A stretch of DNA of 64,000 bases from the NCBI RefSeq assembly GCF_013315695.1, contig NZ_CP054353.1; one strand, 5' to 3'. Source of the stretch: Escherichia coli. GTDB lineage: Bacteria; Pseudomonadota; Gammaproteobacteria; Enterobacterales; Enterobacteriaceae. A program made the position numbers. Shown piece by piece: positions 17,533-23,500 of this stretch; the stretch's first letter is position 1, and each line of letters opens with the position of its first letter.

Positions 17533-20500
17533 TTATCGTTCATGAGAAGCATAACGTAAAGGGAAAAGCTCGATTAGACGGCAGGATTTGTCAGGGGTTA
17601 TGAACGAAATTCATAAATCTGTTTGAGTGTTGCGATGAGTCGTGCAAGTTCGATATCCCTGCAATTCACAGTCTGATGAAGGAAAATGAATATCCATAAA
17701 AAATATATCGGTTTATCCTGGCGTATATACCTACTTCGACGTATTTCCAATAGTTGCTAATTAAAGGCAGGTCATTATTATTCACTCTGAATAATGAATT
17801 ATTCACTGTCCGCAGAGTAAGAAATATAACTTAGGTATCTATTTAATGACTTGCACAAAAAGCTAAATTTTCACCCATAAATAAAAATATAATCCCGCGC
17901 CCAACCACCTGATGAGTGGCTACAGGCACTGGATATATTAGGTGGCGGTGTACTTTCTTACATAAAGGTATTTCCTTTTCTGCGGAAAAGGAAACCGGGA
18001 AATCCCCGGTTTTTCTGACAAGCAGACGCCATTATTTGTGTCTGCCTATGTTCGTTAATTCGTTCATCAGGAAATTATCTCAATGTCACGTTATAAAATA
18101 GGTCATAAACAACCACAATTTCGTTATTCAGTTCTGGCCCGCTGCGTGGCGTGGGCAAATATCTCTGTTCAGGTTCTTTTTCCACTCGCTGTCACCTTTA
18201 CCCCAGTAATGGCGGCACGTGCGCAGCATGCGGTTCAGCCACGGTTGAGCATGGGAAATACTACGGTAACTGCTGATAATAACGTGGAGAAAAATGTCGC
18301 GTCGTTTGCCGCAAATGCCGGGACATTTTTAAGCAGTCAGCCAGATAGCGATGCGACACGTAATTTTATTACCGGAATGGCCACCGCTAAAGCTAACCAG
18401 GAAATACAGGAGTGGCTCGGGAAATATGGTACAGCGCGCGTCAAACTGAATGTCGATAAAGATTTCTCGCTGAAGGATTCTTCGCTGGAAATGCTTTATC
18501 CGATTTATGATACGCCGACAAATATGTTGTTCACTCAGGGGGCAATACATCGTACAGACGATCGTACTCAGTCAAATATTGGTTTTGGCTGGCGTCATTT
18601 TTCAGGAAATGACTGGATGGCGGGGGTGAATACTTTTATCGATCATGATTTATCCCGTAGTCATACCCGCATTGGTGTTGGTGCGGAATACTGGCGCGAT
18701 TATTTGAAACTGAGCGCCAATGGTTATATTCGGGCTTCTGGCTGGAAAAAATCGCCGGATATTGAGGATTATCAGGAACGCCCGGCGAATGGTTGGGATA
18801 TCCGCGCAGAGGGCTATTTACCTGCCTGGCCGCAGCTTGGCGCAAGCCTGATGTATGAACAGTATTATGGCGATGAAGTCGGGCTGTTTGGTAAAGATAA
18901 ACGCCAGAAAGACCCGCATGCTATTTCTGCCGAGGTAACCTATACACCAGTGCCTCTTCTGACACTGAGCGCCGGGCATAAGCAGGGCAAGAGCGGTGAG
19001 AATGACACTCGCTTTGGCCTGGAAGTTAACTACCGAATTGGCGAACCTTTGGCGAAACAACTCGATACGGATAGCATTCGCGAGCGTCGAATGCTGGCAG
19101 GCAGCCGCTATGACCTGGTTGAGCGTAATAACAACATCGTTCTTGAGTATCGCAAATCTGAAGTGATCCGTATTGCTCTGCCTGACCGTATTGCAGGTAA
19201 GGGCGGGCAGACGGTTTCCCTGGGACTTGTGGTGAGTAAAGCAACTCACGGTCTGAAAAATGTTCAATGGGAAGCGCCGTCTTTGCTGGCCGCAGGCGGA
19301 AAAATTACGGGGCAGGGTAATCAGTGGCAAGTGACGCTCCCGGCTTACCAGGCAGGCAAAGACAATTATTATGCGATTTCTGCGGTTGCCTACGATAACA
19401 AAGGCAATGCCTCAAAACGCGTGCAGACAGAGGTGGTCATTACCGGAGCAGGTATGAGTGCCGAGCGCACGGCGTTAACGCTTGACGGTCAGAGCCGTAT
19501 TCAAATGCTTGCTAACGGTAGTGAGCAAAAGCCACTGGTGCTTTCTCTGCGCGACGCCGAGGGGCAGCCAGTCACGGGCATGAAAGATCAGATCAAGACT
19601 GAGCTGACGTTCAAGCCAGCTGGAAATATTGTGACTCGTACCCTGAAGGCCACTAAATCACAGGCACAGCCAACACTGGGTGAGTTCACCGAAACTGAAG
19701 CAGGGGTGTATCAGTCTGTCTTTACTACCGGAACGCAGTCAGGTGAGGCAACGATTACTGTTAGCGTTGATGACATGAGCAAAACTGTCACTGCAGAACT
19801 GCGGGCCACGATGATGGATGTGGCAAACTCCACCCTGAGCGCTAACGAGCCGTCAGGTGATGTGGTTGCTGATGGTCAGCAAGTCTACACGCTGACACTG
19901 ACAGCGGTGGACTCCGAGGGTAATCCGGTGACGGGAGAAGCCAGCCGCCTGCGACTTGTTCCGCAAGACACTAATGGTGTAACCATTGGTGCCATTTCGG
20001 AAATAAAACCAGGGGTTTACAGCGCCACGGTTTCTTCGACCCGTGCCGGAAACGTTGTTGTGCGTGCCTTTAGCGAGCAGTATCAGTTGGGCTCATTACA
20101 ACAAACGCTGAAGTTTGTCGCCGGGCCGCTTGATGCAGCACATTCGACCATCGCCCTGAATCCGGATAAACCGGTGGTTGGTGGTACGCTTACGGCAATC
20201 TGGACGGCAAAAGATGCCAATGGCAACCCTGTAATTGGCCTCAATCCAGATGCACCGTCATTATCTGGCGCAGCCGCTGCGGGGTCTATGGCATCAGGCT
20301 GGACGGATAATGGCGACGGGACCTGGACTGCGCAGATTACTCTCGGCACTACGGCGGGGGAATTAGAGGTTATGCCGAAGCTCAATGGGCAGGACGCGGC
20401 AGCGAATGCGGCTAAAGTGACCGTGGTGGCTGATGCGTTATCTTCAGGCCAGTCGACAGTCTCTGTAGCCGCAGACCGCGTAAAAGCAGGCGAAAGCACA

Positions 20501-23500
20501 ACCGTGACGCTTATTGCAAAAGATGCGCATGGCAACGCTATCAGTGGCCTTTCCCTGTCGGCAAGCCTGACGGGTGCTGCGTCTGAAGGGGCGACGGTAT
20601 CCAACTGGACCGAGCAGGGCGATGGTTCCTATGTCGCTACGCTGACCACAGGGGGAAAGACGGGTGAGCTTCTCGTTATGCCGCTATTCAACGGTCAGCC
20701 AGCAGCCACCGATGCTGCGCGGTTGACTGTCGTTGCGGGGGAGATGTCATCAGCGAACTCTACGCTTGTTGCTGACAATGAGTCTCCGACCGTCAAAACG
20801 ACGACGAAACTCACCTTCACCGTGAAGGATGCGTACGGGAACCTTGTCACCGGGCTGAAGCCAGATGCACCGCAGTTTAGTGGTGCCGCCAGCACGGGGA
20901 CAGAGCGACCTTCAGCAGGAGACTGGACAGAAACAAGTAATGGGGTCTACGTGGCGACCTTAACGCTGGGATCTGCCGCGGGTCAGCTGTCTGTGATGCC
21001 GCGCGTGAACGGCCAAAATGCCGTTGCTCAACCACTGGTGCTGAATGTTGCAGGTGACGCTTCCCGGGCAGTGATCAGTGATATGGCGGTGAAGGTGAAT
21101 AACCAACTGGCAAATGGACAGTCTGCTAACCAGGTAACCCTGACCGTCGTGGACAGCTATGGTAACCCGTTGCAGGGGCAAGAAGTTACGCTGACTTTAC
21201 CGCAGGGTGTGACCAGCAAGACGGGGAATACAGTAACAACCAATGCGGCAGGTAAAGCGGATATTGAGTTGATATCAACCGTTGCAGGGGAACTTGAAAT
21301 CGCGGCCGCGGTGAAAAACTCTCAGAAGACGGTCACGGTGAAATTCAACGCGGATGCCAGCACCGGTCAGGCAAACCTGCAGGTAGACACCGCCGTTCAA
21401 AAAGTGGCAAACGGCAAAGATGCCTTTACGCTGACGGCGACCGTTGAGGATAAAAATGGTAACCCTGTTCCAGGGAGCCTGGTGACCTTTAATCTGCCCC
21501 GGGGTGTCAAGCCGCTTACAGGCGATAATGTCTGGGTGAAAGCCAACGATGAGGGGAAAGCAGAGTTGCAGGTGGTTTCAGTGACTGCCGGAACGTATGA
21601 GATCACGGCATCGGCAGGGAATAGCCAGCCTTCGAATACGCAGACTATAAGGTTTGTAGCCGATAAGACTACCGCAACCGTCTCCGGTATTGAGGTGATT
21701 GGCAACTATGCGCTGGCGGACGGCAAAGCCAAACAGACGTATAAAGTTACGGTGACTGATGCCAATAACAACCTGTTGAAAGATAGCGAGGTGACGCTGA
21801 CTGCCAGCCCGGCAAATTTAGCTCTGGATCCCGATGGGACGGCGAAAACTAATGAGCAAGGGCAGGCTATTTTCACCGCCACGACCACTGTCGCAGCGAA
21901 ATATACACTCACGGCGAAAGTGGAACAGGCCAACGGTCAGGAATCGACGAAAACTGCTGAATCTAAATTCGTCGCGGATGATAAAAACGCGGTGCTCGCC
22001 GCATCATCTGATGTGACTTCTCTGGTGGCGGATGGGGTACAGACCGCAACAATGACGGTTACCCTGTTCTCGGCAAATAACCCTGTTGGGGGGAATGTGT
22101 GGGTCGACATTGAGGCTCCGGAAGGAGTGACGGAGAAGGATTATCAATTCCTGCCGTCGAAAAATGACCATTTCGTGAGCGGAAAAATCACGCGTACATT
22201 TAGTACCAGCAAGCCTGGTGTCTATACGTTCACATTTAACGCCCTGACCTATGGCGGGTACGAAATGAAGCCAGTGACGGTGACCATAACCGCGGTGGAT
22301 GCCGATACGGCAAAGGGCGAGGAGGCGATGAAATAATATTAAGAGTATGAAAGTAACATTCTAATAAACAATAATGGCGTTGACATCTTCAACGCCATTA
22401 TTTATTGAATTGCCTGACAGTAGTCTCGTTATAAATTCATTTAGATATAGCGATAACTAAACCGGACGAACAGGGATAAATATTTCGCAAACAACATCAT
22501 TGCTATCCTTTTCTACGAAATCTTCATTGTAATAAAATCGCTCAATATCACTGCCGTTCACTCTGGCTAACCCCCTGGCAGGTAATTCCATCAGATAGAG
22601 GTTTCGCGCCCATTCAGGGTAGTGCTCCCACTCACCTTCATAGCGGAAAGAGGCATACAGTCCTCGGTTAATTATCCACTCTTTTGGCATCTCTGAATCG
22701 GTTTGTTTACATACCGTACCGGCAAAAGTTTCAACTGTGAGCAAATCGACTGATTTTGTTGAGGGTTCGAACGTGGAGACGAAATAGATATCCGTCTTAA
22801 AATTCTTCATACATCTGGCTAAATGATGACGTCGCAGTTTGACTTCTTCATCCGGTGATTTATTCGACACTTCAATATCATATTTAAATGAATTGCCAAA
22901 AATAGGTGTCTCAGGAAAGTTGACTAATCTACACTCCGTCTTTTGCTGTTGACGTATTAAAAAAGAAGGGAAGATATTTGCGAGATCCCAATAATCACGG
23001 TGGCGGTATTCACGGGGAGAGCAGCCGAATAACTTTTTAAATTCGCGGCTGAATGATTGCTGTGAATCAAAATGCAAAGAGAGTGCAATATCAAGCATAG
23101 ATTTCGCGGAGAGCCGGACAAGAATGGCGGCACGACAAAGCCTTCGTTTGCGAATGTATTCTCCCAAAGGCACATGCATGAAATTTCGGAACAGAAGCTG
23201 GATGTTGCGTCTGCTGTAGCCAGATTTCTGTGCGATATCTTCGATTGAAATAGGGTGCTCAAGATTACACTCAATCCACTCCAGGAGCTGCTGTAGAATC
23301 TTCTGCCTGATCATCACATACTCCGTTAATTCTTTGTCATATCGCACATTTTCGTTATGTCCTGGGCCCTAAGTGTATCAAAAACAGCAAGTCCCAAGGC
23401 AAAAGCACTGATAGCGTCTGCTTCATTGCCCCAAAAATAGAGAGGTTTCAGTCCTACATTATTAATGAATTTTTTGCATAAGTGATATCAAAATCCACAT

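Follow-up and report, generated by a model that had tools for sequence, protein, structure and literature searches.

A 64,000-nucleotide stretch of Escherichia coli DNA (NCBI RefSeq assembly GCF_013315695.1, contig NZ_CP054353.1), hereafter the window, was analyzed with respect to three neighboring loci that are damaged in E. coli K-12: fdeC (eaeH), which encodes a predicted inverse autotransporter adhesin; yaiT, which encodes a predicted classical autotransporter; and the yaiS-yaiP-yaiX-yaiO cluster. Across 49.8 kb, the window is 99.96% identical to strain MSB1_4I (NZ_LR898874.1), which originates from a human rectal swab; the two differ at 7 mismatched and 11 gapped positions. The fdeC gene of the blood isolate AF14 is 100% identical to the window copy, and strain MS 21-1 is 100% identical to the window across yaiT and across yaiO-yaiS. 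The first of the three loci comprises the following features.

18083-22336, plus strand: fdeC (eaeH), complete inverse autotransporter (type Ve) adhesin gene, 1417 amino acids (aa); a single open reading frame (ORF) with an ATG start and no internal stop
18083-18223, plus strand: putative N-terminal export signal of FdeC, ~aa 1-47, in which a basic N-region precedes a hydrophobic core (aa 21-39) and a likely cleavage site between AARA and QH (sequence inspection and hydropathy scan)
18308-19132, plus strand: beta-barrel translocator of FdeC, aa 76-350 (Pfam PF11924, IAT_beta, E = 5.7e-109, profile positions 3-279 of 279)
19154-22333, plus strand: passenger of FdeC, aa ~358-1417, consisting of tandem bacterial immunoglobulin (Ig)-like domains and mosaic between alleles (Pfam, 9 Invasin_D3 and 4 Big_1 stretches)

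A stop-free frame of 4.25 kb together with the IAT_beta match identifies the region as a real gene rather than a product of chance. In both MSB1_4I and AF14, RefSeq annotation gives these coordinates to "fdeC: inverse autotransporter adhesin FdeC", and over its whole length the window protein aligns to five complete FdeC sequences of unrelated strains, at 89.8-95.1% aa identity and with 0-3 gap columns. The stop-free ORF and these alignments confirm the original prediction that eaeH is a single 1417-aa frame at this position. No frameshift or premature stop was found on alignment of either fdeC or yaiT, and the stop-free frames, aligned end to end with orthologs, rule out a chance ORF or a hidden frameshift in both genes.

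The layout of the FdeC protein is that of type Ve secretion, with the barrel N-terminal to the passenger and the IAT_beta profile fully covered. The barrel is 97-100% identical to those of the five comparators, and aa 595-1008 of the passenger show 90.8% identity to the FdeC crystal fragment (PDB 4E9L). Homology to intimin (EaeA) and Yersinia invasin is evident in the barrel, where aa 113-357 match the solved structures 4E1S and 4E1T (phmmer, E = 8e-71 and 3e-82, respectively), and the passengers of these proteins are Ig-like as well. However, FdeC of the window scores only 380 bits against the NCBIfam intimin model, for which the cutoff is 1400, and the window lacks Tir and any locus of enterocyte effacement (LEE) context. 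Because the NCBIfam scores for intimin, IatC, Ilp, SinH and related proteins all fall far below the cutoffs, the protein is an inverse autotransporter of the FdeC/EaeH type, not an intimin or invasin; identification of the protein as intimin, invasin, IatC or SinH was ruled out on these scores.

The characterized proteins of this type, ECOK1_0290 of the extraintestinal pathogenic E. coli (ExPEC) strain IHE3034 and EaeH from H10407, a strain of enterotoxigenic E. coli (ETEC), share with the window the locus order, that is, aldo/keto reductases followed by fdeC and then a ykgA-like gene and rcl. They also share the length class (1415-1418 aa) and the succession of a putative signal, an IAT beta-barrel and tandem Ig-like domains. 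Neither a LysM domain nor a C-type lectin domain was found in FdeC by Pfam search, and the absence of detectable domains of these two kinds is likewise part of the common layout. The window allele differs in the Ig-domain blocks at ~aa 700-1000 and 1300-1400, which are only 82-93% identical to the comparators.

The second locus, yaiT, was also found as predicted, in a single 969-aa autotransporter frame that is free of stops.

59091-62000, plus strand: yaiT, complete classical (type Va) autotransporter gene, 969 aa; a single ORF with no internal stop
61221-61934, plus strand: C-terminal beta-barrel translocator of YaiT, aa 711-948 (Pfam PF03797, E = 1.2e-46)

By eye, the N-terminus of YaiT reads as a candidate signal peptide, MHSWKKKLVVSQLALACTLAITSQANA, with a break before TT (MHSWKKK...SQANA/T). 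The segment stays below the transmembrane (TM) threshold in a 19-residue hydropathy scan; a short signal core is expected to miss a threshold set for that length. At the other end of the protein, aa 571-969 match TIGR01414, the barrel finds the Vag8 and BrkA barrels in the PDB, and the sequence closes on ...KYTW, with an aromatic last residue. A match to the autochaperone domain AC_1 at aa 575-654 remains below the Pfam threshold (19.7 versus 27.1 bits), and aa 28-575 contain no Pfam domain.

The yaiT gene sits between hemB and iprA, and the same flanks are found in the O157-type strain ERL04-3476, E. coli W, CFT073 and K-12. The gene at this position is annotated as ehaB in O157-type strains and in E. 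coli W, and CFT073 carries a 995-aa autotransporter that, from its position and the description in PMC8281228, we infer to be UpaC (c0478). EhaB and UpaC have been described as two forms of one gene or locus (PMC8281228), yaiT/yaiU is the name of the positional ortholog derived from the K-12 pseudogene (PMC13248724), and yaiT, UpaC, EhaB and SeaB are treated as positional orthologs (PMC8281228, PMC13248724, PMC9289746). By sequence, YaiT of the window is 90.9% identical end to end to the K-12 protein obtained by joining the halves after removal of the insertion sequence (IS), 85.1% identical to CFT073 UpaC and ~70% identical to EhaB. The hemB-iprA position, the type Va layout and a near-identical translocator are shared with UpaC (CFT073 c0478) and EhaB (E. 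coli O157:H7), autotransporter group 10, and with Salmonella SeaB; the segment at aa ~608-969, which includes the translocator, is 98-100% identical in all alleles compared. The passenger, in contrast, diverges, and its closest form is K-12 YaiT. The window gene is this strain's allele of the UpaC/EhaB locus, in the YaiT/UpaC form. Equating it with EhaB sensu stricto, the laminin and collagen I adhesin of O157:H7, was ruled out, given that passenger blocks are only 32-64% identical to EhaB. In megablast searches, just 46-52% of the window yaiT aligns to ehaB records, and RefSeq gives the YaiT form a generic name rather than EhaB.

The third locus is a cluster of four genes on the opposite strand, in which, as originally proposed, the yaiX-yaiP-yaiS stretch is uninterrupted and consists of open ORFs.

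50311-51084, minus strand: yaiO, outer-membrane beta-barrel protein with a signal peptide (open ORF; Pfam/NCBIfam, hydropathy)
51086-51796, minus strand: yaiX, hexapeptide acetyltransferase, GlmU-C-like (open ORF; Pfam/NCBIfam)
51645-52841, minus strand: yaiP, GT2 glycosyltransferase, PgaC-like, with 4 (1+3) TM-like segments (open ORF; Pfam/NCBIfam, hydropathy)
52851-53522, minus strand: yaiS, PIG-L deacetylase, 223 aa (open ORF; Pfam/NCBIfam)

The spacing of the cluster is operon-like, with a 9-nt gap between yaiS and yaiP, an overlap between yaiP and yaiX, and a 1-nt gap between yaiX and yaiO. The 223-aa frame of yaiS is open in the window, MSB1_4I and CFT073, its tail is conserved, and a BshB1-type profile aligns over aa 19-221. 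In MSB1_4I and CFT073, RefSeq labels yaiS a partial pseudogene with a "missing C-terminus" (window 53160-53522, minus strand; 24507-24932 in locus L016). A pseudogene was nevertheless rejected here: across yaiS, MSB1_4I and the window are 100% identical in DNA sequence, and the full frame is open in all three sequences. The RefSeq call therefore looks like an annotation artifact, for which a small ykiC-like ORF annotated on the other strand is a possible cause. A literature search turned up no study of the yaiS-yaiP-yaiX-yaiO cluster and no function assigned to it. Its resemblance to a synthase-dependent surface glycan module is suggestive, although we regard that assignment as rather unlikely. 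This cluster, ahead of either adhesin, is the least explored element of these findings.

The lesions of K-12 were mapped by comparison of the window with MG1655 and with its annotation. Two of them are conveniently given as window coordinates.

18959-22653, no strand: segment lost in K-12, spanning the 3' 3,378 nt of fdeC, the intergenic stretch after it and the 3' end of the ykgA-like gene, with IS3A in its place (blastn of the window against MG1655)
60549-60552, no strand: site matching K-12 IS3B in yaiT, at ~codon 487 (two K-12 alignment blocks overlap there)

In the MG1655 annotation, eaeH (b0297) is an 888-nt pseudogene with IS3A directly after it, IS2A divides yaiX (b4579) and IS3B divides yaiT (b4580). 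The blastn blocks relevant to eaeH span window positions 17532-18958 and 22654-23577, the second of which begins inside the ykgA-like regulator, and in K-12 IS3A lies between them. Because homology stops at 18958 and resumes only at 22654, the K-12 eaeH lesion consists of IS3A plus a 3,695-bp deletion and, therefore, cannot revert. The K-12 yaiT lesion is of a different kind: the two halves rejoin in frame into 2,907 nt without stops and, accordingly, the lesion is a simple insertion. The IS2A site in yaiX corresponds to window positions 51496-51501. Thus, the IS3 and IS2 insertions that the original prediction gave for K-12 are all present, in eaeH (IS3A), yaiX (IS2A) and yaiT (IS3B), but for eaeH the notion of a simple insertion does not hold. 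K-12 also lacks window positions ~14576-17531, which carry a LysR regulator and two aldo/keto reductases, and most of another reductase (23577-24303). What remains of the K-12 genes is closely similar to the window: the eaeH fragment shows 99.0% aa identity over the first 292 aa and 97.6% over the 296-residue annotated translation, and yaiX shows 99.6% aa identity.

A further K-12 lesion, missing from the original prediction, was found in yaiS, where codon 186 is TAG in K-12 versus CAG in the window (~52965-52967, minus strand), so that 38 residues are lost and the product is 185 aa compared with 223 aa. The yaiS allele of K-12, presented as a normal coding sequence in the MG1655 annotation, is probably truncated. 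An exact word that extends across the TAG is present in 355 of 5,426 complete E. coli genomes, a count that is approximate since the query was built from approximate flanking sequence (94.9% alignment); among those listed, all are K-12 laboratory strains. With IS2 in yaiX and the TAG in yaiS, K-12 is a double null for the cluster, which could explain the lack of an assigned function. None of these K-12 changes (IS3A with the 3,695-bp deletion, IS2A, IS3B and TAG186 of yaiS) is present in the window.

The prevalence of the intact state was estimated over the same 5,426 complete genomes from the coverage of each locus; these are coverage counts, not frame checks. At least 80% of the window fdeC is found in one place in 4,585 genomes (~85%), and at least 80% of the window form of yaiT in 3,226; the yaiO-yaiS cluster is present in 4,809 (~89%). 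Most of the genomes that remain in the case of yaiT carry the EhaB form, which aligns over the conserved ends alone. Published surveys, with which the coverage counts agree, report fdeC in 92-100% of isolates, with aa identities >91% (PMC3324786), and a complete fdeC in 67% of 126 genomes and in 83% of the strains of the E. coli reference collection (ECOR) (PMC6714894). The intact state of fdeC, yaiT and yaiX is, with high confidence, the ancestral and ordinary one in E. coli, and that of K-12 is derived and damaged. The contrast in intactness is, accordingly, informative about K-12 rather than about the window strain, and it has already been published: Nesta et al. reported in 2012 that fdeC, which encodes a broadly conserved adhesin, exists as a pseudogene in the K-12 strains MG1655, W3110 and DH10B (PMC3324786). 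That report and the MG1655 annotation bear out the proposal that K-12 lacks the intact surface adhesin FdeC.

The function proposed for the two proteins follows that of their characterized relatives. FdeC is a surface adhesin that mediates adhesion, collagen binding and aggregation and is expressed on host contact (PMC3324786); display and binding are known for the IHE3034 and CFT073 alleles (PMC3324786, PMC4943183), and assembly is stimulated by the translocation and assembly module (TAM) (PMC4943183). UpaC and EhaB are characterized biofilm and adhesion autotransporters (PMC8281228, PMC13248724). By analogy, the FdeC protein of the window would be exported via Sec, its N-terminal barrel, of the 12-stranded type, would enter the outer membrane with the help of the beta-barrel assembly machinery (BAM) and TAM (PMC4943183), and the Ig-domain passenger (~1,060 aa) would be threaded to the cell surface, where it could bind collagens and epithelial cells and promote aggregation and biofilm formation (PMC3324786). 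Similarly, YaiT would be exported via Sec, insert its C-terminal barrel and display its passenger, and may promote biofilm formation and binding to the extracellular matrix in the manner of UpaC and EhaB (PMC9289746). For the window strain itself, we infer export, surface display, ligand binding and regulation from these relatives.

Purifying selection on both genes is apparent from Nei-Gojobori pairwise estimates, in which the ratio of nonsynonymous to synonymous divergence (dN/dS) is 0.13-0.23 for fdeC and 0.17-0.33 for yaiT. Identity of FdeC to the five comparators, taken per 100-aa block, ranges from 71 to 99% and drops to 71-90% in Ig-domain blocks. In yaiT, the synonymous divergence (dS) of the passenger exceeds that of the translocator 10-30-fold (59091-60900 versus 60900-62000), a pattern that implies old or imported allelic lineages probably recombined onto a conserved translocator, with the boundary near aa 500-600.

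The surroundings of fdeC include a regulator and reductases of the kind that Nesta et al. (PMC3324786) assigned to the fdeC locus, as well as noncoding elements on both sides of the gene.

14726-15619, plus strand: LysR regulator of the fdeC cluster (MSB1_4I annotation, Pfam; absent from K-12)
15650-16639, minus strand: aldo/keto reductase of the fdeC cluster (MSB1_4I annotation, Pfam; absent from K-12)
16666-17517, minus strand: aldo/keto reductase of the fdeC cluster (MSB1_4I annotation, Pfam; absent from K-12)
17518-18082, plus strand: AT-rich intergenic region upstream of fdeC, 565 bp, the presumed promoter and regulatory region (GC 0.395 versus ~0.50-0.57 in the flanks; AGGAA 10 nt before the ATG)
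22370-22402, no strand: terminator-like hairpin with a 14-pair stem between the convergent fdeC and ykgA-like genes, a putative terminator (terminator scan not enriched over shuffles)
22457-23314, minus strand: AraC/GyrI-like regulator (ykgA), a truncated pseudogene in K-12 (annotation, Pfam, blastn against MG1655)
23562-24431, plus strand: aldo/keto reductase (ykgQ in K-12), a truncated pseudogene in K-12 (annotation, Pfam, blastn against MG1655)

The region upstream of fdeC is 94.9-100% identical to its counterpart in six other strains. A scan for consensus promoters and terminators around fdeC gave counts no higher than the shuffled background and did not establish promoter positions.

Farther upstream, window positions 1-13800 hold the remnant of an integrative island, which includes a PerC-family regulator and the following features.

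695-2029: tyrosine integrase
2111-2824: Dit-like phage protein
3800-5130: IS2
8076-8618: PRiA4_ORF3 protein
11059-11673, plus strand: 204-aa protein
11693-13798, minus strand: 701-aa protein

The two island proteins at 11059-13798 have no match in Pfam or PADLOC.

Two IS1A copies, at 13808-14575 and 31495-32262, lie in the same orientation, differ by one base and flank a 16.9-kb block (14576-31494) that extends from the LysR gene to ykgG and includes fdeC and rcl. The right copy joins ykgG to a truncated lacA (32264-32608, minus strand), with lacY, lacZ and lacI kept; ykgH, betABIT, pdeL/yah, prpRBCDE and codBA, which lie between ykgG and lacA in other strains, and cyn, which lies there in K-12, are missing from this position (31495-32608). 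DNA to the left of the first IS1 copy is inverted relative to AF14, such that window positions 1-586 match a yagU-proximal segment in reverse. In MSB1_4I, two further IS1 copies are present just to the left of the window (locus L017), ecpC is truncated, none of ecpR, ecpA and ecpB is present, and ykgM/ykgO have been relocated; the common-pilus (ecp) operon of this lineage thus appears disrupted, whereas fdeC is complete. The pair of nearly identical, like-oriented IS1A copies raises the question of whether the block is a composite transposon that brought fdeC to this site. Such an origin is highly improbable and was rejected: no 9-bp target-site duplications were found around either IS1 copy or around the pair, the block is 99.96% identical to AF14, where these two IS1 copies are missing and native sequence continues on either side, the junction at the right is simply a deletion that reaches into lacA, and MSB1_4I has additional IS1 copies and rearrangements next door. 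Deletion and inversion mediated by IS1 explain everything seen, with fdeC in its native context. The lack of duplications at either copy points to such events and not to a simple insertion.

Two other readings bear on what the intact genes mean rather than on how they came to be there, and both are weighed here against the view that FdeC and YaiT act like their characterized relatives. According to one, the notable feature is not integrity but rare, recombinant passenger variants with a new ligand or antigenic specificity. Both passenger alleles are indeed rare: among ~5,400 genomes, just 7 records for fdeC and 17 for yaiT reach at least 99% identity, with most at 90-95% or 80-90%. FdeC is mosaic, with blocks 701-800 and 901-1000 at 82-90% identity to all five comparators compared with 97-100% in the barrel, and the dS of yaiT is 0.62-1.7 in the passenger compared with 0.04-0.09 in the translocator. 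However, the 90-95% identity of FdeC is at or near the published >91% (PMC3324786), a variable passenger on a conserved translocator is already known at the EhaB/SeaB locus (PMC13248724, PMC8281228), and dN/dS values <0.26 give no sign of positive selection in pairwise averages. This reading is considered unlikely. According to the other, the genes are intact but cryptic, that is, silenced by H-NS or because the inducing signal is lacking, or hidden under O-antigen or capsule, so that the strain would be no more adhesive than K-12 by way of FdeC and YaiT. The upstream region of fdeC, at 39.5% GC, is DNA of the type bound by H-NS; PMC6714894 and PMC4943183 cite Easton 2014 for control of fdeC by H-NS and temperature; expression of FdeC is seen solely on host contact (PMC3324786); conditional regulation through H-NS, temperature or host contact is also supported by PMC11143625; and EhaB and SeaB phenotypes appear on overexpression only, possibly owing to repression or surface shielding (PMC13248724). 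Conversely, dN/dS of 0.13-0.25 indicates that the proteins are kept by selection and so are made under some natural condition, and strains with a functional fdeC share 95-100% identity with the window in the upstream region. Crypticity is thus a serious possibility, albeit one we consider less probable than its opposite; it concerns regulation, not identity, and is compatible with the favored assignment of the genes as intact FdeC and UpaC/EhaB-locus adhesins. Under laboratory culture, transcription of fdeC and yaiT is probably low and dependent on conditions. The sequence itself shows nothing at odds with the identity of the two genes. Several observations weigh against carrying over function from the characterized proteins to the window strain. 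Besides the rarity of both passenger alleles, ligand specificity may differ, with FdeC at 90.8% identity to the IHE3034 fragment and the YaiT passenger (aa 1-420, per 100-aa block) at 68-87% to K-12 and 32-50% to EhaB. Deletion of fdeC in an avian pathogenic E. coli (APEC) strain raised adhesion (PMC11143625), and the label "adhesin" is, therefore, context dependent. Finally, the first IS1 copy ends ~150 bp upstream of the fdeC cluster's LysR gene (14576-14725), where it replaces the native upstream DNA, and could alter expression of the regulator or local regulation.

The finding that fdeC, yaiT and yaiX are intact is, then, correct but already known, being the normal state of the species and a documented peculiarity of K-12. 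FdeC is a published vaccine antigen and adhesin, and the UpaC/EhaB locus is already known to be split by an IS in K-12, so that beyond correct annotation the finding has little consequence. The genes for both adhesins are complete in the window strain, with rare passenger alleles, and this allelic variation is relevant if variants of FdeC or UpaC are considered as vaccine or typing targets. K-12, for its part, provides a natural null background for three neighboring loci, including the uncharacterized yaiS-yaiP-yaiX-yaiO cluster.

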